Part shown: positions 1 through 31,716 of the stretch, one piece after another | How the letters are laid out: every line of letters begins with the position of its first letter | How positions within the stretch are numbered: position 1 is the stretch's first letter | Notes under the pieces: model-generated | Database searches by the model: none | Seen by the model: the letters and a program-made list of their open reading frames with translations, nothing else | Told to the model about the DNA's origin: nothing | Source of the DNA: Elusimicrobiota bacterium | GTDB lineage: Bacteria; Elusimicrobiota; Elusimicrobia; UBA1565 | Assembly (NCBI GenBank): GCA_041650695.1 | Contig: JBAZKS010000008.1 | Coordinates: 6,080-70,079, forward strand | Direction of reading: 5' to 3' | Length of the DNA: 64,000 nucleotides | Translations under genes and position numbers: made by a program

Positions 1-91
1 CGAGCTCGGGCGTCAGCCTCTCGGGCTCGCCCCCCGCGAGCATCCTGTCCAGCTCGGCGTTGAACCGCTCCGCCTCAGCTCTTTCTTCCAT
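1..91 (-). CDS. Partial CDS running off the window start; possible anti-sigma factor downstream of the ECF sigma gene (N-terminus only)
   Basis: On the minus strand an ATG at 91..89 is preceded by GGAGAGGAAG (SD, ~7-nt spacer). It opens a frame reading MEERAEAERFNAELDRMLAGGEPERLTPEL... to the window edge, overlapping the 3' end of the sigma gene by 17 nt. It is not in the ORF track because it is truncated. Confidence 0.3.
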   Translation of the reverse strand, partial: MEERAEAERFNAELDRMLAGGEPERLTPEL

Positions 92-629
92 GGCTCTTCC
101 TCTCCATCTCGCCGCGCAGCCGCTTCACGGACCTGAACACGATGACGCCCACGTTGCTCTCGCTCAAGCCCGTCTGCGCCGCGATCCCGCGGTTCGTCAT
201 CTTCCAGGCGAACTTCATGGCCAGGACGTCCCGCTCCCGCTCGTTGAGACAGGCCAAGGCTGAAAGGAGCTCCGCGTCGGACTCCTTCCGGCTGAGCAGC
301 GTTTCGGGCGTGTCCCCCTCCGCCGGGGACCCCTCCGCCCACGGCAGCCACGCCCACAGCCTGCGCCTTCTGAAATGGTCGTTGACCGTGTTGCGGGCCA
401 CGGCGAAGATCCACGCCTCGATAGGCCCTTTCTCAGCCCTATAGCTCTCGAACTTATCCAGGGCCTTCTCGAAGACCGCGCTGGTCACGTCCTCGGCCGC
501 AGCCGGGTCGGACACCCGGTAGCGGATATAGTTGTATATCCTCCCGAAGAAAGCGTCGTAGAAAGCGGCAAAATCGGGCTGGCGAGCCAAAGCAATTGAA
601 TCTACCAAAGCTTCCAGCTCTAGCGCCAT
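75..629 (-). CDS. RNA polymerase sigma-70 factor, ECF subfamily
   Basis: 184 aa. Region 2 (DPAAAEDVTSAVFEKALDKFESY) and region 4 HTH (LNERERDVLAMKFAWKMTNRGIAAQTGLSESNVGVIVFRSVKRLR) are present. An AAGAGGA SD lies 4 nt before the ATG at 629. Confidence 0.85.
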   Translation of the reverse strand: MALELEALVDSIALARQPDFAAFYDAFFGRIYNYIRYRVSDPAAAEDVTSAVFEKALDKFESYRAEKGPIEAWIFAVARNTVNDHFRRRRLWAWLPWAEGSPAEGDTPETLLSRKESDAELLSALACLNERERDVLAMKFAWKMTNRGIAAQTGLSESNVGVIVFRSVKRLRGEMERKSHGRKS

Positions 630-1801: not shown

Positions 1802-1849
1802 GCCGGCCTCCATCTACCAATACGCAGGAGGCCGGAAAGTATTACACCC

Positions 1850-2437
1850 CTACTTCTTCCCGCTCCTCCTCGTCATGCACACGATCTCGTGGATCTTGAC
1901 GCTGAAGAACTCGGCCGAGCAGGCCGGGGTCAGCACGATGGCCGTGTCCGCGCCCTCGCCGGTCCCGCCCAAAGCCATGACCTCTTCCCCATGAGGGAGC
2001 ATGCCCTGGTCCGCGGCCATGAGCGCGACCTCCACAGCCACCTTGAACCCCTGCCCGAGGGTGTAATACGTCTGCGCTATGAGCTTGTTCGGGGTGAGGG
2101 TGAGGAACTTATCGCTGATGGCCGTGTTGATCCCGCCCATGGCGTGGCCGCTTCGGATGAAGTCCGCGCCCAGGCCCTCGGCCTGGTGAGCCATGTCCGG
2201 GTCGAGCCTGCCCCACTTCCTGGCGTAGTTCTCGGCGTACGCCACGCCGATGACCTTGGCCTCGCTGCGGAGCTTGCGCAGCTCCCTGGCCAGTCCCAGC
2301 GCGGTGCGGCCGCTCGTCGTGGCCACCACGACGTGCTCAAGCTCCAGCTCGTGCGCTCTTTCCGCGGCCGCGGCCAGGCAATGGCCGCTCTCCGCTTTCC
2401 CGACCTTGTCGAGGTAGAGGATGGTCTTTTTCTTCAT
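1850..2437 (-). CDS. Pyruvate kinase alpha/beta (PK_C-like) domain protein
   Basis: 195 aa. HVVVATTSGRTALGLARELRKLRSEAKVIGVAY resembles the pyruvate kinase C-terminal alpha/beta domain signature. It is the last gene of the long minus-strand string. Confidence 0.45.
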   Translation of the reverse strand: MKKKTILYLDKVGKAESGHCLAAAAERAHELELEHVVVATTSGRTALGLARELRKLRSEAKVIGVAYAENYARKWGRLDPDMAHQAEGLGADFIRSGHAMGGINTAISDKFLTLTPNKLIAQTYYTLGQGFKVAVEVALMAADQGMLPHGEEVMALGGTGEGADTAIVLTPACSAEFFSVKIHEIVCMTRRSGKK

Positions 2438-2443
2438 AATGGC

Positions 2444-4338
2444 TCAGAACCCCCTGAAATCGGGCATATACTGCCTGTGCCAGAGCTCCAGCATGAGCAG
2501 GGCCCACATCCTGTAGCCGTGGTCCCGCCTGCCGCTCTGATGTTCGTCGAAGATCTCCTGCAGGGCGGCCTTCTCGAAATATCCGCGGGCCAAAGCCTCC
2601 GGGGAGAGCACGTGCTCGCGCCAATAATCCTTGAGCTGGCCCCTGAACCAAGGGCCCAGTGGGATGCCGAAGCCCATCTTGCCCCGTTTTTGTATCGCCT
2701 TGGGGAGCTTGTCCGCGAACGCGCGCTTGAGTATCCACTTATGCCTGCTCAGGCCTTTGAGCTTCCAATCCCCGGGGAAATTGAAGACCAGCTCCATGAA
2801 CTCGTGATCCAGGAAGGGAGAGCGCCCCTCCAGGGAGTTGGCCATGGTCGCGATGTCCATCTTGACCATGAGGTCTTCCGGAAGGTAGGTCGTCATATCC
2901 GCGAAGAGCATGCGGTTGACGAAATCCTCGCCCTTGCCGCGCTCGAACGCGGCCGCGAGATAACGCTCCGCGGCGGGCTCCTTGCCCAGGGCCGCGAGCA
3001 TGCGCGGAGTGTAGAGCCCCTTCTTGTCCTCTTCCGAGAAGAAGCAGACCATCTTCAGGTGCCGCCGCGCCAGGTCCGTGAACACGGCCGAGCGCAGAAA
3101 GCGTTTGAGCTTCCAGGGGAAGCTCACCGGAGCCGACTTGTCCGGCAGGAACTCGGCCATGTTCCTCAGGCCCGCCCGCACCGGGCCCGGTGCCAGATCG
3201 AAAAGACGGGCCGCCTTCATGGCGAAGTACCGGACGTAGCCCGCGAAGTTCTCATCCCCGCCGTCGCCGTTGAGCGCCACGGTGACGTGCCGCCGCGTCT
3301 CGCGCGCTACATAATAGGAAGGCAGGGCGCTCGCGTCCGCGTACGGCTCCCCGTAGTGCCAGGCGAGCTTGGGAAGGACGTCCGCCATGTCCGCGGTCAC
3401 GATGAGCTCTTGGTGGTCCGTGCCGCAGGCCTCGGCCACCTCCCGGGCGTAGGGCAATTCGGAGAACGCCTCCTCCTTGAACCCGATGGAGAAGGTCTTG
3501 ACCGGTTTGTCCGAGAGCTCGCTCATCAAGGCCACGATGATGGAGGAGTCCACCCCGCCGGAAAGGAACGCGCCCAGGGGCACCTCCGAGATCATGCGCA
3601 GCTTCACGCATTCCCGGAGCTTATCCCGGATCATGGCGCAGGCCTCGTCCAGGTCGCGGGTGACGGGCGGTTCGCCGAGAGGGAGCTGCCAATAACGCTC
3701 GACCGATGCCTTCCCATTCTCCCAGACCAGGGTGTGGCCGGGCGGAAGCTTCCGGACGTGCTTGTAGATGGTCTTCGGGCTGGGGATGTACTGCAGGGAG
3801 AGGAAAAGGTCCACCGCGACGGGGTCCACCTCTCGGCGCACCCCGGGCCATACGAGCAGGCTGCGCAGCTCGGAGGCGAAGGCCAAAAATCCCGGGCCTT
3901 CGGCGTAGACCAGGGGCTTCTTCCCGATCCGGTCGCGGGCCAGGAAGAGCCGCCCCTTCGCCTGGTCCCATACGGCGAAGGCGAACATGCCGCGAAGCCT
4001 CCGCACGCAGGCGGCCCCGAACTTCATGTACAGCGCCAGGATGACCTCCGTGTCCGAGCGCGTCTTGAAGGGATAGCCGTCCTTCTCCAACTCGGACCGG
4101 AGCTCCTGGAAATTGTAGATCTCGCCGTTGAACACGATGTGCGTCCGGCCGTCCGGGCTCGCGATGGGCTGATGCCCGGTCGCGAGGTCGATGATGGACA
4201 GGCGCCGCATGGCCAGGCCGGCGTGGGCATCCGCGTGGAAGCCCTCGTCGTCCGGGCCGCGATGGGTGATGAGCGAGTTCGCCCGCTTGAGAAGCTCGAG
4301 GTCGAGGCGCCCCGCCTCGCTATGGACTATCCCGCAGA
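2444..4338 (-). CDS. asnB: Asparagine synthase (glutamine-hydrolysing) family amidotransferase, AsnB/WbpS-like
   Basis: The C-terminal synthetase domain has the PP-loop SGGVDSS, and the N-terminus has the class-II glutamine amidotransferase domain. The ORF track starts at MRRL (4210), but the frame stays open upstream and encodes ICGICGIVHSEAGRLD..., i.e. the catalytic Cys. There is no ATG/GTG/TTG before the in-frame stop at 4359..4357; the probable start is ATC at 4338..4336 with AGGAGGG 3-4 nt upstream. Confidence 0.8.
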
Positions 4339-5466
4339 TGCCGCAGATATGCCCTCCTGATAGATCTTAACGTATTCCTCAGCCACCTTCTCGAGCGAGA
4401 ACCTGGCGACCGCCGCTTCACGGGCGGCCCGGCCCAGCCTCGCCGCCAGCTCCGGCGCCGAAAGCACGGAGTCCAGCTTCTTGGCCAGCTCCTCCTCGTC
4501 CGCGGGGGCGAACAGGAGACCGGACACGCCCTCCTCCACCGCCTCCCGCGTTCCCCCTACCCGGCTCGCGAGCACGGCCAAACCGCTCGCCATGGCTTCC
4601 AGCAGGGCGTTGGAGAGCCCCTCGGAGATGGAGGGGAGCACGAACACGTCGGCCGCGGCGTAGTACTCCTCGATCTTGTCCGTGGGAGGCCGCAGGAGCA
4701 AGGGAAGGTCCCGCAGAGCGGCTTCTTCCGGCCCGGCACCGACGATGACAAGGCTGGCCCTGGCCCCGCTCCGGATCAAGGCTTGAGCGAACGATTTCGC
4801 GAACCGAGGGAGCCTCTTCTCGGGAGCGAGCCTGCCCACGTAGAGGAAGCAAAGCCCGGCGGGGATGCACAGCTTCCTCCGGAGGGCGTCCTTCCGCTCC
4901 GGCGGAACGGGCTGATAGCGGCGCACATCCACCCCGTTGGGCACCACCCTCGCCCCTTTCGCCAGGCCGAAGCGCTCCAACTCGGGGAGGAGCTCCCGCG
5001 TCACGGCGACGAGCACCGGCCTGAAGAACCGCAGCAAAGCCAGCTTGAGCCTTCCCGGCAGGGTCCGGCCCGAGACCGCCAGCTCGCCGATGCCGGCCCC
5101 GCCCCCCACCTTCACGATCACGCGTTTGTCGAGGAGCCGGCCCGCGACGCAGGCGGCCAGGGCCGGCGAGCCGGCCAGATGGACGTGGATGGCGCCGTAG
5201 TCCGCCGCGCGCCGCAGAAGCCAGAGCGCGCTCGAGGTCATGAAGGAAAGGGCGTTGAAGACCCCCCGGCCGCCGGCCCGGACCCGATGGACCGGGAGTC
5301 CGGCCACCGTGTCCTCGGCCGGGAGCCCGGGCAGGCTCCGGGTGAGCACGTGGACGCTCCACCCTTTCGCGGCCAGGGCCTTGGAGAGCTCCAGGGCCTG
5401 CTTCTCGGCCCCGCCCACGACGGGATGAAAGCCCGGGGTGAGCATCACCACGCCGGTTAGGCTCAT
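4327..5466 (-). CDS. Glycosyltransferase family 4 (GT-B, RfaG/WcaL-like)
   Basis: 379-aa C-terminal part of the 706-aa track ORF. MSLTGVVMLTPGFHPVVGGAEKQALELSKALAAKGWSVHVLT is a typical GT4 N-terminus, and EX7E-like ...SISEGLSNALLEAMASGLAVLASRVGGTREAV lies in the C-domain. The ATG at 5466 overlaps the upstream stop (ATGA). The first 327 aa of the track ORF are antisense to the methyltransferase gene. Confidence 0.8.
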   Translation of the reverse strand: MSLTGVVMLTPGFHPVVGGAEKQALELSKALAAKGWSVHVLTRSLPGLPAEDTVAGLPVHRVRAGGRGVFNALSFMTSSALWLLRRAADYGAIHVHLAGSPALAACVAGRLLDKRVIVKVGGGAGIGELAVSGRTLPGRLKLALLRFFRPVLVAVTRELLPELERFGLAKGARVVPNGVDVRRYQPVPPERKDALRRKLCIPAGLCFLYVGRLAPEKRLPRFAKSFAQALIRSGARASLVIVGAGPEEAALRDLPLLLRPPTDKIEEYYAAADVFVLPSISEGLSNALLEAMASGLAVLASRVGGTREAVEEGVSGLLFAPADEEELAKKLDSVLSAPELAARLGRAAREAAVARFSLEKVAEEYVKIYQEGISAASAG

Positions 5467-6485
5467 GAGTCGCGCCGCCTGCCGACCATGCCGACCTTGG
5501 GCACCAGCCCGTGCGGCAGCTGCCGCACCACCTCGCAGCCCGCCTCCGAGAACCAGGCGCGCATCTCCTCCTTGGTGTGCTTGCTCTGGAACGGCGGGGC
5601 CAGCCAATCGAAGTTCTCGATGAGCCGGACCTTGAAGTCCCGCTCCACCGAGAATGTCAGGTACTTGAGGAGCGGGAAGGCCCCGAGGAAGGCCAGGGGA
5701 TGGCACAGGAGGTAGAGCAGGCCCACGGGCAGGCGCGTGGTGAGCAGGCGAAGCCCGTCGCTCAGGAGCTGCCGCGTCCATACCACGGCCCAGGCGAGGC
5801 GCAGGTGGCGCCGGACCCAGTCTCTCCCCGCGCGCACGGGATTGCTGGAGAAGCTCTCGAAGGAGCCGGGGGTCCCGTAGACCCATACCGTGATGATCCC
5901 GTCGCGCCGGGTCAGCGCCGCGATCTGCCCGAACGCGGCTTTGGCGTCCGGGGTGTGATGGATCACCCCCTGGCTGTAGACGATGTCGAACACGCCGCGC
6001 TTGAACGGCGGGTGCAGCAGGTCGCCCTGCACCACGTGCAGGCTCCCCGTCTCCCGGCTCACGGGGACGAGCCGCCGGAGACTCTCGGACAGATCGAAGG
6101 ACACGACCTCGGCTCCCAGGGAGAGCGCGACCGCGGTGTAGCGGCCCATGCCGCAGCCGGCGTCCAGCACGAAGCGGCCGGCCCAGTCCCCCTCCGGGAT
6201 CTGGGTCTCCTCCAGGAATATCGCCTTGTCCTGGGGACGCCCCCCGGGGTAGCGCAGCCATTCGTAGCCGAAGGAATCCCGCGTCCGCAGCATGCGGCCG
6301 TCCCCCGTCCGCGCGAAGAACCTGGGGATCGACTCCTCGATGGGATACTCCTGGGAGCAGACCTTGCAGCGCAGGCCGCCGCTCTCGATCTCGACATCCT
6401 CCCGCGGATAATCGTCGAGGGTCGCGAACTCCAATTCCCCGCGGCATGCCGGGCAGGCCAACCGCTTGAGAAGATGCAGCTTCAT
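5463..6485 (-). CDS. Class I SAM-dependent methyltransferase with N-terminal Trm112-like zinc ribbon
   Basis: CPACRG...CKVC ribbon, then SAM motif I VLDAGCGMGRY and motif II-like DIVYSQGVIHH. Confidence 0.7.
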   Translation of the reverse strand: MKLHLLKRLACPACRGELEFATLDDYPREDVEIESGGLRCKVCSQEYPIEESIPRFFARTGDGRMLRTRDSFGYEWLRYPGGRPQDKAIFLEETQIPEGDWAGRFVLDAGCGMGRYTAVALSLGAEVVSFDLSESLRRLVPVSRETGSLHVVQGDLLHPPFKRGVFDIVYSQGVIHHTPDAKAAFGQIAALTRRDGIITVWVYGTPGSFESFSSNPVRAGRDWVRRHLRLAWAVVWTRQLLSDGLRLLTTRLPVGLLYLLCHPLAFLGAFPLLKYLTFSVERDFKVRLIENFDWLAPPFQSKHTKEEMRAWFSEAGCEVVRQLPHGLVPKVGMVGRRRDS

Positions 6486-7480
6486 GGACGTCCTCCCGCC
6501 GCCGGGGCCTCGGTCAAGGCCCGCCGCAGGCTCTCGAAGGTGTGCCCGAGCTTGTAGAGGAAAAGGACTCCCAAGAGGGTCACGATCGCATACCCCAACA
6601 GATGCGAGACCATCGCGTAGCTCACCGCGAGAGCCCTATCGTAGCCGAAGCGCTCGAGGATGAAGCGCACCGAAGCCTCGAAATTTCCGAACGCTCCCGG
6701 CACGGTCGGGAGCATGGTCCCGGCCGCGGCCGTGCAGAGCACCAAGATCGCGCGGCCCAGGCCGAGGCCGGGCTCGAACCCCATGGAGGCGGCGATGGCG
6801 GAGCAGTACGCCGCGTCCCAGATCCAAAGGGCGAGGCTCCAGAACCCCACCTGAAAGCACACGCTCCAGGAGCGCAGGGCGCGGGTCCCGCACACCAGCT
6901 CGCCGGCCATGCGGCCGACGGAAGGCAGGCCCCGCAGCCGCGCGGCCGCCCGCGCCAGCCGCTCTCCGCCCGCGGCCGCGGTTCCGAGCGCGGCCAGGAT
7001 GAGCAGGGTCAAGCCGGCGGCCAAGGCCCGCAGCCGCGGCTCGACCAAGTCCGGCATGAAGGACGCCCCGACGACGAACAGCAGGAGGATCGCGGCCATG
7101 TCGCAGAGGCGCTCCACCACGATGGTGGCCAGCACGCTCATGACCGGGACCTCGAATTCCTGCGCGGCCACCAAGCTCCGCGCCACCTCGCCCAGCCTCA
7201 GGAACAGCACGTTGTTGACGGCCAGGCCGATGGCCTCCAGCTGGGTCAGGGTCCAGACCCCGGCCCGGGTCATCGGCGCCAGGAGCAGACTCCACCGGAG
7301 CGCCCGGATGAGCAAATCGATGAGCGGGAACACCAGGAGCACGGGAAGCCAGGCCGGACGGAAATCCGAGAGGGAGTCCAGCACCTCTCTCGGCCGGATG
7401 TCCTTGAACGCGTAGAAGAGGAGCGCCCCGCCCACGACCAACGCCAGGCCCATCCCGGCGGAGCGCTTCAGCCGCTTCAT
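6482..7480 (-). CDS. Polytopic membrane protein, flippase-like / lysylphosphatidylglycerol-synthase-TM-domain (UPF0104) family
   Basis: 332 aa with about 8 predicted TM segments. The composition and hydropathy pattern are typical of the UPF0104 flippase-like family, which is often found in glycan loci. Confidence 0.5.
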   Translation of the reverse strand: MKRLKRSAGMGLALVVGGALLFYAFKDIRPREVLDSLSDFRPAWLPVLLVFPLIDLLIRALRWSLLLAPMTRAGVWTLTQLEAIGLAVNNVLFLRLGEVARSLVAAQEFEVPVMSVLATIVVERLCDMAAILLLFVVGASFMPDLVEPRLRALAAGLTLLILAALGTAAAGGERLARAAARLRGLPSVGRMAGELVCGTRALRSWSVCFQVGFWSLALWIWDAAYCSAIAASMGFEPGLGLGRAILVLCTAAAGTMLPTVPGAFGNFEASVRFILERFGYDRALAVSYAMVSHLLGYAIVTLLGVLFLYKLGHTFESLRRALTEAPAAGGRP

Positions 7481-9297
7481 ATACGCGCCTCACGCCATAG
7501 CCAGAAGGACCAGGCGACGGCTCCGAAGAGGCACAGCCCGGGCCAGAAGCTCGGGACGAAGGTGAACTCCGCCGTGAACGCATCGGCCGCCGGCACGTCG
7601 ATGCCCATGAGGAGCCCGTCCACGACGCGGATGGGGACCGGCCTGCCGTTGAGCCGGGCCTTCCAGCCCGGGGAAGAGGGCACGGCAAGGACCAGGCCGG
7701 AGCCGGAGGCTCTTCCCTTCACGATCCAGCGCTCGGCCCTGGGCGACTCGACCTCCAACGGCTCGGAGCTCCCCTCCAGGAACGCGAGAGGGCGGGCTCC
7801 CGGCACCGGATATATCACCCCCCCCGCCTTCGTGCGCCGATACGCTCCGCCCAGCTCCGTAAGGCTCAGGGTGTACCCCACTCCCAGCCGGGACATCTCC
7901 CTGGAACGGACGTTGCGGATATGGGTGCGGCTCGGGTCCACGGCCGGCACGGGCGCTTCGGACCGGATGACGTAGCGCGTATAGTTCTCCAGATACGCGG
8001 CGTCATAGCCGTTCACGTTCATGGCCCTGTAGAGCATTGCCTTATTTGGGTTGGCGAGCTCCGGGTCGCTCGCGAACCGCACGAGCTTGCCGCCGAGCGC
8101 TTCGGCGACCACGGGATCCGCCGCGAGCTTGGGCCCGGGCTCCTCCGCGTAGACGTAGCGCGAGGCCGGCATCCCCAGGTCCCCGAGCACGAAGAGGATG
8201 GCGGCCAGCCTCCACGCGGGCTTCGCCTTCCCGTCGACGAGCTTCGCTCCGCAGGCCGCGGCCAGGAACAGGCCCCAGAAGGTCAGCAGCAGGAAGCGGG
8301 CCGGAACCCTGGAGAGCCCCGCCGGGGACAGGTCGAAGCGGCCCAGGGCCAGGACGACCCCGGCGGCCGCGAGGAGCCAGCCGAATGCCGCCTCCCGCCT
8401 GCTGCGGGCCAAAGCCCATAAGGCCAGGACCAAGGGCAGGAGACCCACGTACGCGGTGCACGTCTCGAAGAAGACGGAGGGATCGTCCGGAAAATCCCCG
8501 GTAAGGGGATCCCCGCTGTATCCGGGCCAGAACAGGCTGGCCAAGGCGGCGGGCGGCATGGAATAGGCTCGCAGGAAGACGGCGGGCACCATCTTGCGGT
8601 TGCACAGGGAGAGGAACTCTGCGGTGGGGACCGCCTGGATGAGGGAAAGCGCCGCGGCCCCGGCCGTGCCGACGCACAGCGTCTTGAGCCTCCGCTTGTC
8701 CATCACGGCGTAGGCGGCCATGGCCGCCCAATGGATGAGGGCGAACTGCGGATGCCCGCTCAAGAGCTGCAGCGCGAGCGTGCCGGCCAAAAGCCAGGAC
8801 TTGCCGGACTCCAGGGCCAGCCAGCACCAGGGCAGATACGCCAGCGCGGCCAGGTGCGTGGGGATGCCCTGCGCCAGCCTGAAGGACACGAACGGGGAGA
8901 GGCAAAAGGCCAGGGCCAGGCAGCAGGAGGACGCGGGGGAAAGCCCGCGGGACCGCAGCAGCAGGTGCATGCCCAGGCCCGCCAGCAGCAGGTGCGCGAA
9001 GGCGAACAGGGTGAACGCATGGTTGAGATGGAATATCTGGAAGAACGCTGAAAGAGGATAGAACAGGGCAGCCTGGGAATTCGCCAGAAGGGGGATGCCC
9101 GCGAAGATGTACGGGTTCCAGAACGGGAGCTCCCCGGCCTGGAGCCGGGCGGCGGCTAGATGACGCAAAGGATAATGATAGGCGTAGATGTCCCCGAAGT
9201 TGCCCAGGAGCAGCCCCGGCCCGGCCAGGACTGGCGAGAGGAGGGCCGCCACCGCGCCGGCGATGGCGAGGACAAAAAACAGGTCTCTGGACCTCAT
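7477..9297 (-). CDS. YfhO-family membrane protein (putative GT-C glycosyltransferase), copy 1
   Basis: 606 aa. N-terminal motif GDIYAYHYPLRHLAAARLQAGELPFWNPYIFAGIPLLANSQAALFYP is characteristic of YfhO. It is multi-TM with a C-terminal extracytoplasmic domain. ATGA overlap with the upstream gene. Confidence 0.65.
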   Translation of the reverse strand: MRSRDLFFVLAIAGAVAALLSPVLAGPGLLLGNFGDIYAYHYPLRHLAAARLQAGELPFWNPYIFAGIPLLANSQAALFYPLSAFFQIFHLNHAFTLFAFAHLLLAGLGMHLLLRSRGLSPASSCCLALAFCLSPFVSFRLAQGIPTHLAALAYLPWCWLALESGKSWLLAGTLALQLLSGHPQFALIHWAAMAAYAVMDKRRLKTLCVGTAGAAALSLIQAVPTAEFLSLCNRKMVPAVFLRAYSMPPAALASLFWPGYSGDPLTGDFPDDPSVFFETCTAYVGLLPLVLALWALARSRREAAFGWLLAAAGVVLALGRFDLSPAGLSRVPARFLLLTFWGLFLAAACGAKLVDGKAKPAWRLAAILFVLGDLGMPASRYVYAEEPGPKLAADPVVAEALGGKLVRFASDPELANPNKAMLYRAMNVNGYDAAYLENYTRYVIRSEAPVPAVDPSRTHIRNVRSREMSRLGVGYTLSLTELGGAYRRTKAGGVIYPVPGARPLAFLEGSSEPLEVESPRAERWIVKGRASGSGLVLAVPSSPGWKARLNGRPVPIRVVDGLLMGIDVPAADAFTAEFTFVPSFWPGLCLFGAVAWSFWLWREARI

Positions 9298-11207
9298 AGC
9301 TGACGGAGGCGGTTATTATACCAGTAAGCCCAAAGACCACACAGAACAAGGACAGTCAGCCCGCAGCCGAGCCTCCAGGACCAAGGGTCGTAGCGCCAGC
9401 GCACGGACCAGGCTCCGGCCGGCACCCGGACCTTCTGGAAAGCTCCCAAAGCCGGGACGGGGACCGCGTCCTGCCAGCCGAACACACTTCCCGTATCCGC
9501 CTTCCAGCCCCGCCAGAACGGCTCGGACACGAAGGCCCAGCCCGGCTCCTTGGACTCGCCGGAGACGGAGAAGCGGTCCTCCCTGGGCCGCGAGACGGAG
9601 AGCGGCTTCGCCCTCGAGAGGTCCGGCGCGGGTCCGCCGAGCCCTTCCGGCAGCTCGGCGCCGGTCTTCTCGTCGAGCCAGAAGGCGCGCGACGCCGGAC
9701 CCGGGTTCCGGTAGAGCTGCCAAAGGCTGTCCCCGAGGTACTCCAGCCGTTTTGACTTGAGCCGGTCCCGGGTCATGACCACCCGGACATCCGCCCAGCC
9801 GAGCCAGCCGGACGCGTCGTCCAAGCCTTTCCGGGTGAAGAGGAAGTCCATCCAGTCGTACGACGCATTGAGGACGAGCGGCTCCCCGAAATTGCACACG
9901 CTCGACAGATGGTACGGCATGTTCGTCAGCCCGTAGAGCCTCTGCCGGAGGTCCGCTGAGGCCGAATCCGCCGTGGGGCCGAGCCCGCGCTCCCACATGA
10001 GGGCCAAGGGGGAGATCAGATACCGGTGCCCCCCGAGCTCCTGCCGCAGCACCTGGACCATGGGCCCGGCGTCCGTGAAGTAGCTCCGCGGGGCCGTGGG
10101 CTGGGAGGCCCGCGCGTAGGCGAACAGCTCCAGCGCGATAAGAGCGGCCGCGCCTGCGGCGAATCTCCTGCGATGGAGGCCCCGGCCGACGAGCAGGGCG
10201 AGCATGGGGACGACCAGATAGGCGAGGTTCCCCGGATAGCGCACGTAGCGCAGGGGAGGGGCGTGAGTCCAGAGCCACTTGGAGAGGCCGTTGCTGTCCC
10301 CCAGGACCAGGAGCCCCACGCCCCCCAGGTAGGCCAGCGGCCACGCGCCGCTGGCCCGCAGGCCCAGGCCGGCGGCGGCCCAGACCGAGATCCCGGCGTA
10401 GGCGGTCTTCCACCAGAGCCCCGCGGGCGAGTACTCGCCGCGCGGGATGAGCGGCGGGGCCGTGAACTGCGCGAGGTCCCGCGCCTTGAACGACCATTTG
10501 AGCCCCTCCTCGCTCTCGATGCCCCGCCCGCGCTTGGAGTCGGACATGAGCTCCGCCGCGGGCAGGAGCAGGCAGGCGGAGACCGCCGCGGCCAGGGCTC
10601 CGGCGCAGACCCAGGTCCTGAACCTGGCCCTGGAGATGAGCCAGGCGGCCGCGGCCGCGCCGGCCAGCATGGGAGGGTATCCGCTCAGGAAGGCGAGGGC
10701 CAGGCTCAAGCCGAGGAGGACCGGCCTGCGGCCGAAGAGCAGCATGGCCGGGAAGTAGGCCAAAGTGGAGAGGTGGTTGAGCAGAGGGATGCGGCTGACC
10801 AAGGGCCCGCCGAGCATGGCCGAAAAGGCTCCGGCCGCCGAGGCCCAGCGCGCCAGGCCCAAGGAGCGGAGCCAGAGGAACGTGAACACGCCGCAGAGCG
10901 AGTAATGCAGCCAGTGGAACAAGGGGAGGGCCGTCGCGAACCCGGAGAGCCAGAAAGGCTGGGACCCGGGGTAGAACACCGCGCTCTGCATCCCGGCCGC
11001 CATGGGCATGCCCAGGTAGATGTACGGGTTCCATAGGGGCAGGGCCCCGCGCTGCAGCATCTCGGCCGGCAGGGCCCGCCAGGGATGGTGCAGGTAGGTG
11101 AGGTCCCCCCAGAAGAAGGTCCGGCCGGCCAGGGCGGGGGCGAACGATACGGCCGCGGCGGCGATCGAGAGAAGGGCAAAAACGGTCCAGTCTCGACGGC
11201 GGATCAC
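9294..11207 (-). CDS. YfhO-family membrane protein (putative GT-C glycosyltransferase), copy 2
   Basis: Paralogous motif GDLTYLHHPWRALPAEMLQRGALPLWNPYIYLGMPMAAGMQSAVFYP. The track ORF extends to 11741, but that part is an antisense artefact. The likely start is GTG at 11207..11205, overlapping the upstream stop (GTGA). Confidence 0.55.
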   Translation of the reverse strand: MIRRRDWTVFALLSIAAAAVSFAPALAGRTFFWGDLTYLHHPWRALPAEMLQRGALPLWNPYIYLGMPMAAGMQSAVFYPGSQPFWLSGFATALPLFHWLHYSLCGVFTFLWLRSLGLARWASAAGAFSAMLGGPLVSRIPLLNHLSTLAYFPAMLLFGRRPVLLGLSLALAFLSGYPPMLAGAAAAAWLISRARFRTWVCAGALAAAVSACLLLPAAELMSDSKRGRGIESEEGLKWSFKARDLAQFTAPPLIPRGEYSPAGLWWKTAYAGISVWAAAGLGLRASGAWPLAYLGGVGLLVLGDSNGLSKWLWTHAPPLRYVRYPGNLAYLVVPMLALLVGRGLHRRRFAAGAAALIALELFAYARASQPTAPRSYFTDAGPMVQVLRQELGGHRYLISPLALMWERGLGPTADSASADLRQRLYGLTNMPYHLSSVCNFGEPLVLNASYDWMDFLFTRKGLDDASGWLGWADVRVVMTRDRLKSKRLEYLGDSLWQLYRNPGPASRAFWLDEKTGAELPEGLGGPAPDLSRAKPLSVSRPREDRFSVSGESKEPGWAFVSEPFWRGWKADTGSVFGWQDAVPVPALGAFQKVRVPAGAWSVRWRYDPWSWRLGCGLTVLVLCGLWAYWYNNRLRQL

Positions 11208-12226
11208 AACGTCAGCACCCGCCACGCGCCGAGCAGCACGAGGAGGCCCGCCCAGGGCCTGGCCCTGGACGGGATGTCGACCCCCTCGGACGTCTCGGAG
11301 GTGGACGAGGCCGCGAGGTAGGAGAGCAGCCAGAGGTTCGAGGCCGAGGAGAAGGGCGAGTCCCAAAGGCTCTGCACCAGCACGGCCCCCAGCCCGAACT
11401 GCTTGTAGGACCTCCCCCGCAGGCAGTGCCAGAGGCCGCCGAACCACAGAAGCGCGAACGGGATGCCGGCCTCTGCGGCCGTCGCGAGGTAGTACTGGTG
11501 GCCCTCGGCGAGGCCCCCCGGGCCGCAGCCCAGCAGGGGCTGCCGGGCCATCACGCCGAAGGCGGCCTTCCATCCCTCCCAGCGCTGCACCCACTCGACC
11601 GAGCCCAGCTGGCCGTAGATCGCCACGGCGCACGCCGCGCTCCCGACGAGGCCGAGCCGGGACCACAGGCGGTTCCGTCCCCGGAAAGCCACGGCCAGGC
11701 CGGCAGAGAGCCCCAGCCAGGCGCCCAGGCTCCCGGTCCAAAGGAGGGCCGCCGCGAGCCCCGCGGCGAGGAGCCGGTCACCGCGCTCCAGGGAGACCGG
11801 CAGGAGCATGAGCGCGGCGCCCGCGAGGACCGGGGGAGAGGCGTACACGCTCGAAGGCGCCGAGGCGCCGCCGGCGAGGCGCTGATGGACCGCGAGGGCC
11901 ATGATGAGCCAGGCCGAGACCCGGACAGCCTCGTCCACGTAGCTCCTGGCGTCCTTGGAGAGCGCGGTCATGACCGGGAACATCCAGACCGCGACCATCA
12001 TGTCGCGAGAGCCGGCGGCCCCCGCCAGCAGGGCCAAGGCCGCGCTCCAGAGGAGATTCCGCCTGGAAGGGATCGGGAGGTAGCCGACGAACACCCGCCA
12101 GAGGAGCCAGAGCGCGGTCCCGGACCAGACCGCGGCCTGGATGGCCGCGTGCGCGCTCGCTCCGAAGACGCCGACCGCGATGGGGCCCAAAGCGACCGGC
12201 AGGGCCACCAAGGCGGACAGGCCCAC
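11204..12226 (-). CDS. O-antigen ligase-like (Wzy_C domain) membrane protein; candidate PglL/PilO-type O-oligosaccharyltransferase
   Basis: 340 aa and polytopic. The arrangement, with a large loop between TM segments and a conserved R/H-rich region (ARQPLLGCGPGGLAEGHQYYLATAAEAGIPFALLWFG), fits the Wzy_C/O-antigen ligase fold. It lies directly downstream of pilQ. Confidence 0.5.
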   Translation of the reverse strand: MGLSALVALPVALGPIAVGVFGASAHAAIQAAVWSGTALWLLWRVFVGYLPIPSRRNLLWSAALALLAGAAGSRDMMVAVWMFPVMTALSKDARSYVDEAVRVSAWLIMALAVHQRLAGGASAPSSVYASPPVLAGAALMLLPVSLERGDRLLAAGLAAALLWTGSLGAWLGLSAGLAVAFRGRNRLWSRLGLVGSAACAVAIYGQLGSVEWVQRWEGWKAAFGVMARQPLLGCGPGGLAEGHQYYLATAAEAGIPFALLWFGGLWHCLRGRSYKQFGLGAVLVQSLWDSPFSSASNLWLLSYLAASSTSETSEGVDIPSRARPWAGLLVLLGAWRVLTL

Positions 12227-12229
12227 GGA

Positions 12230-14287
12230 TCAGGAAGGGATGATCCGCGTGGTGACGAAGATGAGCAGCTCCACCCGGTTGCGGGTCGTCGACTTCTTCT
12301 TGAACAGCCATCCCAGCAGCGGGATGTCGCCGAAGAAGGGGACTTTTGAGATCGAATCGCTGACCGAGTCCGTGATGAGCCCGCCGATGACCACGGTGCC
12401 GCCGTCCTGCACCACCACGGTGGTCTCGGCCGAGCGGCTGTCCGTCTGCCTGGCCCCGGTGGCGCTCGCCGCCGTGTTGGGCGAGGCCTGCTCCACCTTT
12501 GGCTTGATCTCCAGGGTGATGCGGCCGTCCGCGTTGATGGTCGGCTTGACGTCCAGGGTGATTCCCGTCTTCTGGAAGGACTGCTTGGTCGCGGTCGTGA
12601 CCGACCCGCCTCCGGCCGGCGTGGTCTCGGTCGTGGTGAAGGGGATGCTGGTCTCGATCTTGATCAGGGCCTGCTTCCCGTTCACCGTCGATATCTTCGG
12701 GTCCGAGAGCACCTTGGCCTTGCCCTCGCTGGCCGCCGCGGTCAGGGTGGCGGAGAGGAAGTAGTTGTTCGTGACGCGCCCGAACGTGAACGCCCCGAAG
12801 ATGTTGCTCGCCGGCAGGTTCACGCCCGTCCCGCGGCCGACGCCCCCGGTCCCGGCGGTGGCATCGGCGTTCTGGTCCAGAGGCTTCACCAGGGCGGTAG
12901 TCAGGGGGTGCGAGGCCGTCCCGAACATATTGGAGCCCGTCTGCGTGCCGATCTTCGAGTTCTCCATCCCCAGATAATCCCACTGGACGCCGAAGTCCAC
13001 GCCCTTGCTGAGCACGACCTCCACGAGCTTGGCCTCGATCATGACCTGCTGAGGCCGGATGTCGATCTCCGAGATCAGCCTCTCGATGGCGTCGATGCCG
13101 TCGAGCGTATCGGTGATGATCAAGGAGTTCGTGTTCTCGTCGGTGACGATGCTGGGAGTGCGCTTCTGCGCGGTCACGACCGCGTCCACGGCGGTCTTCA
13201 CGTCCAGCGCTTTCGCATACTTCAGCCGGACGATGCGCGTCTGATTGACGGCGACCCCCCGCTCCTTGGTCAGCGTCGACGGAGTCATGACGCGCAGGAT
13301 GTTCTCCCCCACCTGGCTGGCCACGAGCCCCTGCATGGAGAGGATCGTCATGAACGCCTCGTTATAGGGGACGTCCTTGAGGTGCAGGCTCAGGTTCCCG
13401 TTCACGTCGGACCCGTAGACGATGTTGATCTTGGCCTTGAGCCCCATGAGCTTGAGCATGTCCCGGATGTCCATGTCGTCGTATTCGAGGGTCACCGGGT
13501 CCGAGGGAAGCGCGGCCAGGATGTCCCGGCGCAGCTTCTTCTTCCCCGCTGGAGCCGCCAAGGGCTTGACCGACGCGGCGGCGGCCGGGGCGTCCGCGTC
13601 CTCCGGCCGGGCGTCGCCCGCCTCGGCGATGGCGCGAAGCTCGGAGGACACTTCCGTGGACAACGACGTCGGGACCTGGGCGACGGGGAGCGCGGGCTTC
13701 GCCGCGGCCCCGTTGGGAGCGTCTTTGAGCGCCGCGGGGGCGGCCGGCTTGGGGGCCGCCGGCTTGGGCGCCTGCGGCGCGGCAGCGACGCGGCCCTGCG
13801 CCTCGTCGGGAGAGGCGTTGGGCGCATGGGCGGCCGGCTCCACTAGAGCCGCATCAACGGGGGAGGCCCGGGGGGAGTCTCCGGAAGCGCCCGTCAGCGA
13901 GACCAGGAGCTTGTTGTCCTCCCACTTGGCGGTGTAGGCCGCCTCCTTGAGCAGATCGAGGACGATGCGGGTGATCATGCTGGGGGTGCGCTGATACTGC
14001 CCGGAACGCACGCCCTTCAACAACGAGCCCTTCCCGCCCTGCTGGCGCTCCGAGGCCGTGAACTCCGTATCAAGGAATTCGATGACAAGGCGCGGGGGAT
14101 TGGAGGTCACGAAAGTGTTGAACTTGACGCGAGAGGTGAGATGCACCGCGACCTCATCCGCCCCGACCTCGACGCCCTCGAGCAGGGCGCTCTCCGCAGC
14201 CCAGAGGAGCGCGGGCCCCTCCTGGCACAGGAGAAGGGCTGCCGCGGTCAGCAGGGCCAAGCAGCGTCTCAAGGGTTGGTTCGTCAT
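12230..14287 (-). CDS. pilQ: Type IV pilus secretin PilQ
   Basis: Signal peptide, AMIN domain (VAVHLTSRVKFNTFVTSNPPRLVIEFLDTEF), an Ala/Pro-rich linker, N0/secretin domains and the C-terminal secretin signature VPFFGDIPLLGWLFKKKSTTRNRVELLIFVTTRII. The start at ATG 14287 (MTNQ...) has a GAGGA SD 5 nt upstream; the track start at 14326 would overlap pilP. Confidence 0.85.
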   Translation of the reverse strand: MTNQPLRRCLALLTAAALLLCQEGPALLWAAESALLEGVEVGADEVAVHLTSRVKFNTFVTSNPPRLVIEFLDTEFTASERQQGGKGSLLKGVRSGQYQRTPSMITRIVLDLLKEAAYTAKWEDNKLLVSLTGASGDSPRASPVDAALVEPAAHAPNASPDEAQGRVAAAPQAPKPAAPKPAAPAALKDAPNGAAAKPALPVAQVPTSLSTEVSSELRAIAEAGDARPEDADAPAAAASVKPLAAPAGKKKLRRDILAALPSDPVTLEYDDMDIRDMLKLMGLKAKINIVYGSDVNGNLSLHLKDVPYNEAFMTILSMQGLVASQVGENILRVMTPSTLTKERGVAVNQTRIVRLKYAKALDVKTAVDAVVTAQKRTPSIVTDENTNSLIITDTLDGIDAIERLISEIDIRPQQVMIEAKLVEVVLSKGVDFGVQWDYLGMENSKIGTQTGSNMFGTASHPLTTALVKPLDQNADATAGTGGVGRGTGVNLPASNIFGAFTFGRVTNNYFLSATLTAAASEGKAKVLSDPKISTVNGKQALIKIETSIPFTTTETTPAGGGSVTTATKQSFQKTGITLDVKPTINADGRITLEIKPKVEQASPNTAASATGARQTDSRSAETTVVVQDGGTVVIGGLITDSVSDSISKVPFFGDIPLLGWLFKKKSTTRNRVELLIFVTTRIIPS

Positions 14288-14303
14288 AGGTGTCCTCATT
14301 GGG

Positions 14304-14834
14304 TCAAGTCTTGCCTCCGGAGCCACCGGGGCTGCTGGATCCTTCCTTTTCCTCGTCCTCTTCTTCCTTGTCCTCGCCCATGCGCAGGATCGCCTTCTCC
14401 CCGGACGCCTCCAGGATGACGGTCATCTGGATGGGATTCACGCGGCCTTTCACCCCGCGGATCGCATGACCCTGGTAGTCATAGAGCCGCCCGCTGCGGA
14501 AATAGTAGCCCGTGCGGCTCTCGGCGTGGTGGAGCAGCGCGTAGGACGACGCCTTGTCCTTCAGGATGCCCTTGAGCGACATCCCCTTGATGAGCGCGGC
14601 CTTGTCCGTTTCCTCGGAATTGGGATCGAACGCCTTCTCCTCGTCCGAGACCGCGACCCCCCCGCTCCCGGTCAGCGAGAGGAACGGGCTCTTGACCTTC
14701 TTGGCGTTGAAGAGGTCCTCGATCTTCGCCGGCTTCGGCGGCGTGGAAGGCTGCGCGGCGGGCGCCGCGCCGCTCTGCGCCAACGCCCGCCCCCCGACGA
14801 CGAAAAGGAACATGAGCACGAACACGGTTCTCAT
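14304..14834 (-). CDS. pilP: Pilus assembly protein PilP-like (small secreted protein in the pilMNOPQ operon)
   Basis: 176 aa with a signal peptide, at the correct operon position between pilO and pilQ. A GGAG SD lies 8 nt before the ATG. Confidence 0.55.
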   Translation of the reverse strand: MRTVFVLMFLFVVGGRALAQSGAAPAAQPSTPPKPAKIEDLFNAKKVKSPFLSLTGSGGVAVSDEEKAFDPNSEETDKAALIKGMSLKGILKDKASSYALLHHAESRTGYYFRSGRLYDYQGHAIRGVKGRVNPIQMTVILEASGEKAILRMGEDKEEEDEEKEGSSSPGGSGGKT

Positions 14835-14838
14835 CGGC

Positions 14839-15393
14839 TCACTCCAGATACTGGTACGCGACCAGTTTGAGCACCATATACATCTTCCCCTCTCCGTCCG
14901 GGGCCCCGAAATTGATGTCGCGGGCGCAGAAGAGCCGCTTCTCCAGCGCGAGCGCGGCCAGGAACTTCCCCAGGTCGTGGTACGAGGTCTGGATCTTGAG
15001 CTCGTACTTCACCTCGGCGTATCCGGCCGCCTTGGTCTCCCCCGTGTAGGAGATCCCCGAAAGCTTGATGTTGTGCTTCTTCGTCAGCGCGCTGACCGTG
15101 TCGATGACTCCGGGCAGATCCTTTTCCTTCGGCAGGGACTCGATAAGCACCTTCAGCTCCGCCTCGAGCGTCACCAGCGCCTTCTGGATCTTCTCGTAGT
15201 CGGCCTGGGCCTTCTTGGCGACCTTGATGCTCTCCTGGACCTGCGCGAACTCGGTCTTGAGCTCCGTGATCCGCTTCGAGGTGGGCATCCAGAAATACCG
15301 CACGTACGCGAAGCCGCCGCCGCCGAGGAAAAGCACGGCGAGCACCAGCGCCTGCTGCTGTTCCTTCGTCAGCTTGATGTTCATCTTCGCCAT
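14839..15393 (-). CDS. pilO: Type IV pilus assembly protein PilO
   Basis: 184 aa with a single N-terminal TM (ALVLAVLFLGGGGFAYV), a coiled coil and a PilO-like periplasmic domain. Operon position supports the call. Confidence 0.7.
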   Translation of the reverse strand: MAKMNIKLTKEQQQALVLAVLFLGGGGFAYVRYFWMPTSKRITELKTEFAQVQESIKVAKKAQADYEKIQKALVTLEAELKVLIESLPKEKDLPGVIDTVSALTKKHNIKLSGISYTGETKAAGYAEVKYELKIQTSYHDLGKFLAALALEKRLFCARDINFGAPDGEGKMYMVLKLVAYQYLE

Positions 15394-15394
15394 C

Positions 15395-15967
15395 TTACGG
15401 TGCCGCCGTGTACGTCATGTTGATCGTGAATTTGGTCGCCGTCTCGCCGATCGTCAGGATCTTGGTCTGTCCGGCGCTGAAGCGCCCGCCGCCGGTCAGC
15501 TGGACCGGTTGGGTCGAGGCGTTCACCCCCCGGAGCCATTGCGCCGCGTTTTCCGGCTTCAGGACCGCCGCGTCGGCATCCACCTGCAGCGTGGTGTTGG
15601 TCTTATTGGTCGTCTTCAGGGTCTCGAGCCACATCCCCTTGGGCATGCTCTCGCTGATATCCGTCATGAATCGGGGGTAGACCAGCCGCGAACTCAGAAG
15701 GCCCTCGATGACCTTGCGCCGCGCGACGACCTTGTCGCGCCTCGCGGTGGCCTCCGCCAGCATGCTCTTGTACTTCTCCAGCGCGGCGAGCTCCGTCTTG
15801 GCCGTGGCCACCTCGGCCTCCAGGACCACCTTGCGGTGGTGGTGCCAATAGGAGACCCCCGCGAACAAGAGGGCGGCGAAGACGCCGATCACGCCGATCT
15901 GCCCGAGGCGCTGCTTCTGCAGCTCCCGGTCCAGGATGTCCTGCGGTACCAGATTGACTCGGATCAT
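15395..15967 (-). CDS. pilN: Type IV pilus assembly protein PilN
   Basis: 190 aa. The N-terminus MIRVNLVPQD...LQKQRL is typical of PilN, followed by a single TM. ATGA overlap with pilM. Confidence 0.7.
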   Translation of the reverse strand: MIRVNLVPQDILDRELQKQRLGQIGVIGVFAALLFAGVSYWHHHRKVVLEAEVATAKTELAALEKYKSMLAEATARRDKVVARRKVIEGLLSSRLVYPRFMTDISESMPKGMWLETLKTTNKTNTTLQVDADAAVLKPENAAQWLRGVNASTQPVQLTGGGRFSAGQTKILTIGETATKFTINMTYTAAP

Positions 15968-17140
15968 TCCCAGTCCCTATTGCGCCGCAGCGCCAGCCCC
16001 ACCGCGATGCCCATGGCCGGCAGGAGTTCGGCCGGCAGGTCCGCGGGCGGATCGCCCAGGAAAGTGAAGGGATCGAGCACGGTGACCGGGACCTTGAGTT
16101 CCCCGGTCAGGAACCGGGCCAGGTTCTTCATCTTCGCGGACCCTCCCGAAAGCACGATGCGCCCGATGGACCGCTCCGGACCCTGAGAGAGGAAAAAGTC
16201 CACGGAGCGGTGCAGCTCGGCGACGAGGTCCTTGAGCACGTTCGCGACGGCCTGGGAGACCCCGAGCGCGTCCCGGTTGCCCTCCTGCAGGGCCTTCTCC
16301 TTCTCCTCGGGATCGATCATGAGGCCGTACGCCTTCTTGACCTCCTCGGCCTTGGCGTACTCGTACTGTAAAGCCTTCATCACGGCTTTGGTGAACGTGC
16401 TCCCGGAGATGAAGATGTCCCTAACGACCCGCGTGACCCCAGCCTCGATGATGGAGAGGTTCGTCACGGTATGGCCGATGTTCAGGTACAGCGCGGAGCC
16501 GACGCGCTCCTGCGGGTCGGTGGTGCCCTCGAACACGTTCTCCATCGCGAAAGAGTCGACGTCGATGATGGCGGGCTTGAGCCCCGCGGCTTCGAGGATC
16601 TCCACGCGCGTCTGGATCAGATCCTTCTTGGCCGCCACCAGCACGGTCTCCATCTTGCGCTGGCCCTCCTCCATCATCTCCGCGAGGATATGGAAGCTGA
16701 GCTGGACCTCGTTGATGTCGAACGGGATGAACGGCTCGGCCTCCGTGGAAAGCGTGGCCCGCAGTTCCTGTTTGGTCAGGAGCGGGAACTTGACGTAGCG
16801 GACGATCACGGCGTTGCCGGAGACCGCGGTCGCGGCGTTCTTGACCTGCACCCCTTTCTGGATGAGGAACGCCTTCAAGGCGTTGACCGTGGCCTGCTTG
16901 CGCTCCTCGGGAGAAGCCTCGGGAGCCGCCTCGATCGGGATATGTCCCCACATCTTGAGCTTGTTCTTGCCGCCCTCGGCCTTGATCAGGACGATCTTCA
17001 CGGCGTACGTGCCGATATCGACGCCCAGGATGTCCTTGGGGCCGCCGAAGAAAGCCCCGACCTTATCCTTCAGGCTCTTGATGTCGACGGCTTTCAGCTT
17101 TTCCTTCAGGTCCGGCATATCCCTCCGAGAACCCGCCATT
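15964..17140 (-). CDS. pilM: Type IV pilus assembly ATPase-fold protein PilM
   Basis: Actin-like ATPase fold (ILGVDIGTYAVKIVLIK ... GGSAKMKNLARFL). The track ORF begins at 17226. The start is ambiguous: 17140 (MAGSRRDMPD...) or 17118 (MPDLK, GGAGGG SD only 2 nt upstream). Confidence 0.8.
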
Positions 17141-17298
17141 AAAAAGCGCCGGCACCCGCTTTTGCGGGGCGACTCGGCGCGCACAGGTAGCTGGCCCGGG
17201 CCATCCATACGCCCAGCACAGCCCACCCAAACCTCGACACAGGTCTACGACTATGCATTTGTAACAGGATTCTACGAATTTGTCAAGGGCTTTTTTTA

Positions 17299-18756: not shown

Positions 18757-18757
18757 T

Positions 18758-23719: not shown

Positions 23720-23721
23720 AT

Positions 23722-25650: not shown

Positions 25651-25684
25651 ATATATATTCTATTCGCCCGCCCGCGAACCGACA

Positions 25685-25713: not shown

Positions 25714-25735
25714 GGCCAGACGTCTGATCTTTCTT

Positions 25736-28369: not shown

Positions 28370-28370
28370 C

Positions 28371-31711: not shown

Positions 31712-31716
31712 CCGCC

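Follow-up and report, generated by a model that had tools for sequence, protein, structure and literature searches.

A conserved junction between pilQ and a Wzy_C/WaaL-fold gene joins type IV pilus assembly genes to a glycan cassette in Elusimicrobiota

PglL of Neisseria and TfpO/PilO of Pseudomonas aeruginosa 1244 are polytopic membrane enzymes of the Wzy_C superfamily that are genetically tied to type IV pilus genes. Genes of this kind typically adjoin pilin genes, as is the case for 21 of 31 PglL homologs (PMC3643930), and the enzymes of pilin or general protein O-glycosylation are usually encoded either beside their acceptors or unlinked to them (PMC3643930). TfpW of P. aeruginosa Pa5196 is also dedicated to pilins and encoded beside one (pilA), but it is a membrane glycosyltransferase of GT-C fold with a periplasmic tetratricopeptide repeat (TPR) domain, and no dedicated flippase is known for its system. 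Here we analysed 64,000 nucleotides from the metagenome-assembled genome of an Elusimicrobiota bacterium (assembly GCA_041650695.1, contig JBAZKS010000008.1, positions 6,080 to 70,079; the window, for short), in which the pilus assembly genes pilMNOPQ run on into a set of glycan genes, and the gene directly after the secretin gene pilQ encodes a membrane protein of Wzy_C/WaaL fold. To our knowledge there is no reported case of an O-glycosylation enzyme gene beside pilus assembly or secretin genes, and we found no description of a pilMNOPQ-Wzy_C arrangement in the searchable literature.

The pilQ-Wzy_C junction was present in ~39 loci, at GC contents of 0.23-0.72 and with PilQ identities down to 35%. 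Searching from the Wzy_C side with a 12-sequence alignment, pilMNOPQ lay immediately upstream in 20 of 21 species-representative Elusimicrobiota genomes, and the genes after Wzy_C in those loci came in the order GT-C (one or two), flippase-like, methyltransferase, GT4 and, often, AsnB. The same arrangement was seen in four loci obtained by exact-protein look-up (L001, L004, L027, and L028). Across loci, the distance from the pilQ stop to the Wzy_C start was mostly 0-20 nt. The reciprocal search, based on PilQ, placed Wzy_C next to pilQ in all nine metagenome loci with PilQ at ≥38% identity and enough downstream DNA; two of these contigs, at GC 0.23 and 0.51, bore two tandem Wzy_C genes each. 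Distant family members (profile E-values of 1e-28 to 1e-49) behaved alike, since the four that were looked up all sit after pilMNOPQ, at least three of them with two tandem Wzy_C(-TPR) genes and three with GT4 as the next gene. Cassette content was less constant: locus L029 has neither GT-C genes nor a flippase-like gene, while one of the deep loci (L111) carries in addition two GT4 genes, a Wzx-type MOP flippase, an SGNH/AlgX-like protein and a methyltransferase.

As a control, we inspected the genes after pilQ in other phyla (PilQ ≤35% identity). None of 11 Pfam-checked loci had a Wzy_C gene downstream; instead, pilQ was followed by an M24 peptidase (six loci), aroK-aroB (three), a kinase-TPR protein or a NucS-like protein. 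The arrangement is therefore more than chance. Because the junction is kept in near and distant loci while the other cassette genes vary, the deeply conserved element is pilQ-Wzy_C(-TPR), usually with GT4, to which GT-C, flippase-like, methyltransferase and AsnB genes are added as modules. An earlier note on this DNA, made from the sequence alone, had called the coupling of pilus and glycan genes uncommon; unusual it is, and, beyond what the note could tell, a lineage-wide trait. One could object that all loci, as far as they are named, come from a single phylum-level group and differ in cassette content, so that the gene order might be an inherited accident of one clade with no functional link behind it. 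We consider this highly unlikely, given that the junction survives the divergence of PilQ, the range in GC content and the turnover of both flanks and of the cassette, and that start/stop coupling has been maintained.

The run occupies positions 1850-17140 of the window, whose GC content is 0.63-0.72. The ORF map and Pfam matches resolve it into 13 genes, not the 14 counted before, all of them on the minus strand as the earlier note had it. From the upstream end, the features are:

17258-17286, minus strand: promoter-like TTGACA-17 nt-TACAAA, a consensus match only, with a putative function
15964-17139, minus strand: pilM, actin-like pilus alignment protein (Pfam PilM_2, E 6e-54)
15395-15967, minus strand: pilN (Myxococcus PilN, PDB 3jc8, E 2.5e-10; Pfam PilN in orthologs)
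14839-15393, minus strand: pilO (Pfam PilO, E 5e-19)
14304-14834, minus strand: putative PilP-position periplasmic protein (by its place between pilO and pilQ in all loci)
12230-14299, minus strand: pilQ secretin with AMIN, N0/STN, Secretin_N and Secretin domains (Pfam Secretin 2.5e-49, Secretin_N 6.8e-14, AMIN 1.1e-9)
11204-12226, minus strand: Wzy_C/WaaL-fold membrane protein, short form, GTG start (fold match; Wzy_C in orthologs)
9294-11207, minus strand: GT-C fold glycosyltransferase (YfhO-like), paralog 2 (by fold)
7477-9297, minus strand: GT-C fold glycosyltransferase (YfhO-like), paralog 1 (by fold; Pfam YfhO 28.5 bits, C-terminus only)
6482-7480, minus strand: MprF-type flippase-like membrane protein (Pfam LPG_synthase_TM 2e-36; TIGR00374 flippase-like domain)
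5463-6485, minus strand: Trm112-like zinc ribbon fused to a SAM methyltransferase (Pfam Methyltransf_11 2.7e-16, Trm112p 8.6e-9)
4327-5466, minus strand: GT4 glycosyltransferase (Pfam Glycos_transf_1 2.5e-33, Glyco_transf_4 6.8e-19)
2444-4348, minus strand: AsnB-type glutamine amidotransferase, probable ATC initiator (called as 2444-4210; Pfam Asn_synthase 6.9e-105)
1850-2437, minus strand: pyruvate-kinase-C-like small protein (Pfam PK_C 2e-10)
620-1813, minus strand: TPR protein with lipoprotein-like N-terminus (Pfam TPR_12 3e-37)
75-629, minus strand: ECF sigma factor (Pfam Sigma70_r2 and r4)

Genes in the run are packed tightly. Neighbouring genes overlap by 4 nt at six junctions, pilN/pilM among them, and are separated by 1-6 nt at five more, while at GT4/AsnB an apparent gap of 116 nt becomes a 22-nt overlap once the conserved ATC initiator described below is taken into account. 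The GTG that opens the Wzy_C gene follows the stop codon of pilQ at a distance of 3 nt and has no Shine-Dalgarno sequence, a geometry that fits translational coupling. Terminator-like hairpins were found at chance level (11, with 9.1 ± 4.2 expected from shuffled sequence) and none of them lies between genes of the run. The layout thus agrees with one tightly coupled unit, as had been proposed. From the overlaps and short gaps, the lack of an intergenic terminator and the promoter-like match upstream of pilM, we infer that pilMNOPQ and the glycan cassette are likely co-transcribed; the promoter-like match sits in an AT-rich 198-nt gap that separates pilM from a divergent HAD/NTP-transferase gene. 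Past AsnB, the PK_C-like gene occurs only in this clade (the window contig and L001), and the TPR gene, which starts 36 nt downstream of it and is overlapped for 10 nt by the ECF sigma gene, has no counterpart in other loci. Both the TPR and the sigma factor gene stand outside the conserved cassette, although the TPR gene is possibly co-transcribed with the run.

Taken by themselves, the pilus genes resemble canonical pilMNOPQ operons such as that of Pseudomonas, where aroK-aroB follow: there are five genes in the same order, the fourth a putative pilP, with the same domain content. PilM, PilN and PilO come in the canonical M-N-O order, and the pilQ product has the domains expected of a pilus secretin. 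The product of the gene in the PilP position (176 aa) has no match in Pfam, NCBIfam or the PDB. Besides a signal peptide, it has an N-terminal stretch rich in Ala, Pro and Ser, but no lipobox cysteine, and its gene is kept at the same place in all loci compared. What sets this operon apart from the canonical ones is that it runs on into glycan genes.

The first of these encodes a protein of 340 aa (100% identical to NCBI entry WC728_04690) that matches no Pfam or NCBIfam family even at E≤10. Its orthologs at 41-50% identity are longer, at 450-500 aa; the 12 long orthologs tested all match Pfam Wzy_C (PF04932), with a best E-value of 1.3e-14, and most orthologs have C-terminal TPR repeats. The structural model of the window protein has a WaaL-like polytopic fold, and WaaL, the sole solved relative, was the only match in fold comparison. 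The Wzy_C/O-antigen-ligase label given in the earlier note is hence right at the level of fold, which makes the protein a probable membrane ligase of the WaaL/PglL superfamily. Compared to WaaL of Cupriavidus metallidurans (PDB 7tpg/7tpj), the window protein is 13% identical, its periplasmic loop is shorter and it has a 13th helix in addition; it belongs to a pilus operon, not a waa cluster, in a family whose orthologs carry TPR repeats. Sequence and fold do not discriminate between a WaaL and a PglL assignment, because WaaL is the only relative with a solved structure and the two families are not separable by simple sequence comparison such as BLAST (PMC3643930). In E. coli WaaL the conserved periplasmic residues are R215, R288, and H338 (PMC3643930), but hhalign produced no alignment between our family and the E. 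coli K-12 protein that would place the WaaL catalytic residues in it. Within the family, R215, H243 and D289 (window numbering) are near-invariant in an alignment of 123 sequences and all three are kept in the window copy; the column that was a candidate for a second arginine is Ala or Ser in most members.

An exhaustive profile search retrieved 104 representatives at E≤1e-30, which defines a TPR-fused Wzy_C family of ~100 clusters at 50% identity. The helix order and the positive-inside rule predict that in long forms the TPR domain follows the 13th helix and is periplasmic. When the family profile was compared to PDB sequences, TPR proteins were the only matches. Where Wzy_C genes occur as tandem paralogs after pilQ, the TPR domain is found on both in two loci (L111, 8001-11797, and L112, 6038-9815) and on the second only in two others (L034, 4914-8188, and L036, 11335-14359); L036 also has a PLD-like enzyme.

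Short forms, to which the window copy and a few of its relatives belong, stop directly behind the 13th helix. They have no TPR domain and lack ~17 residues of the periplasmic loop, a deletion that falls inside the Wzy_C domain. Arg or His is lost in 4 of 6 TPR-less short forms, compared to 1 of 117 long forms. The closest relative of the window copy, P0002, has a His-to-Arg change, while the window copy retains its His. These losses may reflect decay toward a non-catalytic role in this sub-clade. A broader pattern that we had considered, namely that among 19 sequences all TPR-less forms seemed to have lost a residue of the catalytic triad, was partly an artefact, and only the Arg/His result survives. 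The window copy is not a pseudogene: its dN/dS is 0.26 (0.13-0.50 for neighbouring genes), showing that it is under purifying selection. The only clade with a TPR-less ligase is also the one with the separate TPR protein at 620-1813, which may or may not be a coincidence.

Such data raise the question of whether the Wzy_C(-TPR) protein is mainly a structural accessory, that is, an inner-membrane anchor whose TPR docks PilQ or PilP in the manner of a pilotin or PilF, with ligase chemistry in second place or gone, at least among short forms such as that of the window. The TPR proteins PilF, PilW and Tgl are known secretin assembly factors and offer a precedent; translational coupling to pilQ suggests matched production of the two proteins; and purifying selection acts on the window copy although Arg or His is frequently lost among short forms. 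Yet the near-invariance of Arg, His and Asp in the long forms argues for catalysis, and GT4 follows the Wzy_C gene or genes in nearly every locus, as a sugar pathway predicts. In addition, the TPR profile does not resemble PilW in any specific way (2vq2, E 0.2), and the window copy has no TPR domain to dock with. A mainly structural role thus appears improbable.

Downstream of Wzy_C, the two GT-C paralogs share 38% identity over their first 240 residues (E 1e-26). They had been described as two YfhO-like enzymes, a label that is right at the level of the GT-C fold; the protein at 7477-9297 reaches the Pfam YfhO cut-off exactly (28.5 bits) through its C-terminal 53 residues only, and the one at 9294-11207 has no significant match (E 0.27). 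PF09586 is present in a minority of their orthologs. In the cassette, the GT-C fold is accompanied by an acidic residue in the first loop on the extracytoplasmic side, and the best structural match of these enzymes is AftD. Pfam and NCBIfam matches bear out the flippase-like, methyltransferase, GT4 and AsnB labels of the earlier note, and GT4 is the most persistent cassette gene across loci after Wzy_C. This set recalls the YfhO/CsbB/GtcA glycosylation of teichoic acids, where a cytoplasmic transferase, a small flippase and an extracytoplasmic GT-C enzyme of the YfhO family work together, but here the host is diderm, the transferase is a GT4 and not a GT2, the flippase-like protein is of MprF and not GtrA type, and there are two GT-C paralogs plus a Wzy_C protein.

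The AsnB gene has been shortened by gene callers to 583-588 aa, which cuts off the catalytic N-terminal cysteine. In frame upstream of the called start the sequence reads ICGICGIVH, where orthologs start with ATG-TGC (MCGICGIVH). The Met position is ATC in the window and in L001, an independent assembly, with GGAGGG upstream, and ATG in all other orthologs. The class II (Ntn) N-terminal Cys is present only if translation starts at this ATC (4348-4346). From the ortholog-like CGICGIVH, the ATC shared with L001 and the preceding GGAGGG, the gene probably starts there. The full context is GGAGGG-N3-ATC TGC GGC ATC TGC GGG, giving (M)CGICGIVH (window 4346-4357, minus strand; L001 17911-17950). Its best NCBIfam match is the XrtA/PEP-CTERM amidotransferase, below the cut-off of that model.

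We favour the view that these genes form a module for glycosylation in the periplasm whose function is coupled to that of the pilus machine, to which we assign a probability of about 0.45. Three observations lead us there: the junction is more lasting than either flank and than most of the cassette; pilQ and Wzy_C are translationally coupled, judging from their geometry; and the ligase has a putative periplasmic protein-binding domain, as does TfpW. In such a module, GT4, working on the cytoplasmic side, would assemble a modified sugar or a short glycan on a lipid carrier, and the methyltransferase and AsnB amidotransferase would modify the sugar on its carrier. The MprF-type flippase-like protein (a Wzx-type flippase in deeper lineages) would bring the glycan to the periplasmic face, where the Wzy_C-fold enzyme and the two GT-C enzymes would pass the sugar to an acceptor made or assembled by the pilus machine. 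By analogy with PglL and TfpO, the chemistry expected is an en-bloc periplasmic transfer from a lipid-linked glycan. Such a donor, like the acceptor, is something we infer; pilins would be the most likely acceptor, and the Ala/Pro/Ser-rich linkers of PilQ or of the PilP-position protein the alternative. In most orthologs, the C-terminal TPR of the ligase would serve to recognise a protein partner from the periplasmic side. TfpW, an arabinosyltransferase proven to act on pilins, has a periplasmic TPR domain that is thought to serve in a comparable way (bioRxiv 10.1101/2020.04.19.049825). In other respects the systems differ: there is no detectable sequence similarity between TfpW and the window proteins, the TPR is here on the Wzy_C protein and not on a GT-C enzyme, and arabinose precursor genes are absent.

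A more specific version can be imagined, in which Wzy_C, as ligase or polymerase, is physically attached to the secretin complex through docking of its TPR on the PilP/PilQ ring, and the flipped lipid-linked glycan is polymerised or ligated at the base of the pilus, to be added to each subunit during growth of the fibre or extruded through the secretin; we regard this as unlikely. Still less credible to us is that PilMNOPQ itself serves, or doubles, as a glycan export route, with Wzy_C polymerising or ligating the flipped glycan at the pilus platform and the product leaving through the secretin. The cassette has no OPX or PCP export proteins, yet Wzx- and Wzy-like parts appear in deep lineages, and in hormogonia of Nostoc the pilus machinery has been suggested to export polysaccharide (PMC7690835). 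That case from cyanobacteria is itself not settled, however, and export proteins could be encoded elsewhere in the genome.

Several results weigh against a module coupled to the pilus. Scans for prepilin motifs found no such ORF in the 10 kb on either side in any of 38 related loci, and none in ~80 kb of this contig (the window plus an extra 16 kb). The PglL_A motif (PF15864), which marks PglL-type enzymes (PMC3643930), has no match at E≤1, neither in the window protein nor in any of 12 orthologs. There is no initiating phosphoglycosyltransferase, Wzx or polyprenyl-phosphate-sugar GT2 in the window cassette, and the nearest GT2 (322 aa) is encoded ~3.4 kb past the end of the operon on the opposite strand. 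The ligase of the window has neither a TPR domain nor the ~17 loop residues, and its sister copy P0002 has lost the conserved His. The operon lies ~8.6 kb from a bamA-lpx run (25736-35527). Finally, in locus L022/P0234 the cassette core is divergent from bamA-skp-lpxD-lpxC-fabZ-lpxA-lpxI-gfo-lpxB-msbA and there are no pil genes. Pilins, which the earlier note had put forward as the glycan acceptor, are thus a candidate only: no prepilin ORF is nearby, and PglL_A and, in the window cassette, an initiating transferase and Wzx are absent. With respect to PglL and TfpO, this system differs as well in having its gene after pilQ and not beside a pilin, a C-terminal periplasmic TPR in most orthologs and a much shorter periplasmic loop.

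The same lack of a prepilin ORF, of PglL_A and of an initiating transferase or Wzx, together with the proximity of bamA-lpx, makes a role in lipopolysaccharide (LPS) or another envelope glycoconjugate a serious rival, and the main one. Wzy_C would then be a WaaL-type ligase (or a Wzy-type polymerase) acting on lipid A-core or another lipid, and would share an operon with pilus genes only through an outer-membrane biogenesis supercluster. WaaL is after all the sole structural relative found, L022/P0234 couples the core to bamA-lpx-msbA, and the window encodes an LpxL-like acyltransferase (46851-47789) besides the bamA-lpx genes. Deep loci, with two Wzy_C genes and GT4, and with Wzx in one case and a DegT-type aminotransferase in another, look like O-antigen clusters; the flippase-like protein is of the lipid-flipping MprF type; and PLD-like lipid enzymes recur nearby. 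Nevertheless, it is the junction with its stop/start coupling that ~39 loci keep, and not the bamA-lpx or inositol flanks. A periplasmic TPR domain suggests a protein partner and is, as far as we know, not a feature of WaaL. Core-oligosaccharide (waa) genes are missing from the cluster, and only a single decoupled locus was found. On balance, we deem the envelope role somewhat unlikely. The decoupled locus (contig CAIRTQ010000130.1) consists of Wzy_C-flippase-methyltransferase-GT4, and lacks GT-C genes and the inositol operon as well as pilMNOPQ.

The lineage-wide pilQ-Wzy_C(-TPR) pair, with its translational coupling, suggests a glycosylation step that goes with the assembly machine and not with a subunit gene. 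Were LPS the acceptor, outer-membrane glycan ligation and secretin production would be co-regulated in Elusimicrobiota; and if the TPR did dock on the PilP/PilQ ring, the pilus machine would have a built-in station for glycosylation or polysaccharide export. In any case, the family of ~100 clusters has a clear and testable genomic association, and the arrangement offers a way to approach the cell surface of a phylum most of which is uncultured.

Divergent from the pilus operon, a tightly packed run of 16 genes extends along the plus strand (17338-35527). It starts with the HAD/NTP-transferase, a 296-aa protein without assigned function, a class-III aminotransferase, a GFO oxidoreductase and a 583-aa CDP-alcohol phosphatidyltransferase, five genes that are kept beside pilM in most related loci, and continues with myo-inositol-1-phosphate synthase, a GNAT protein, bamA, skp, lpxD, lpxC, fabZ, lpxA, lpxI, gfo and lpxB. 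The content of this run suggests that an inositol- or aminocyclitol-containing lipid is made along with the outer membrane. In mycobacteria, the PIM/LM/LAM pathway employs an inositol-phosphate synthase, a phosphatidylinositol synthase, the GT4 enzymes PimA/B and the GT-C enzymes PimE/AftD. Its likeness to the window, which combines the inositol-phosphate synthase and CDP-alcohol phosphatidyltransferase of the divergent operon with the GT4, flippase-like and GT-C genes of the cassette, is a lead only. We gave less weight to a reading of the whole as a PIM/LAM-like inositol-glycolipid pathway, since the cluster is also present in loci that have other genes upstream of pilM; in several cassette-bearing loci the inositol operon is not beside it, and the GT4 has no specific similarity to PimA.

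Other observations concern the surroundings. Rfam and tRNA scans of the window gave no matches. At 39471-43202 (minus strand), a single 1243-aa protein combines a CheB methylesterase, a CheR methyltransferase, PAS domains and a histidine kinase. On the same contig, past the left edge of the window (L113, 10539-16331), the ECF sigma gene is followed by a 184-aa protein without assigned function, a 157-aa protein with an RcpC/CpaB domain, which is of Tad-pilus type, and a 540-aa PLD-like protein. The opposite strand there encodes the 322-aa GT2 and a B12 radical-SAM protein. This GT2 is a possible polyprenyl-phosphate-sugar synthase for the GT-C enzymes, and GT2 genes come after the cassette in L004, L005 and L028. 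Lastly, the metagenome-assembled genome DATLUA01 contains the whole pilMNOPQ-Wzy_C-GT-C-flippase-GT4 cluster on two contigs (38 and 23; L023 and L026) in near-identical layout, which reflects either a duplication or strain heterogeneity in the bin.

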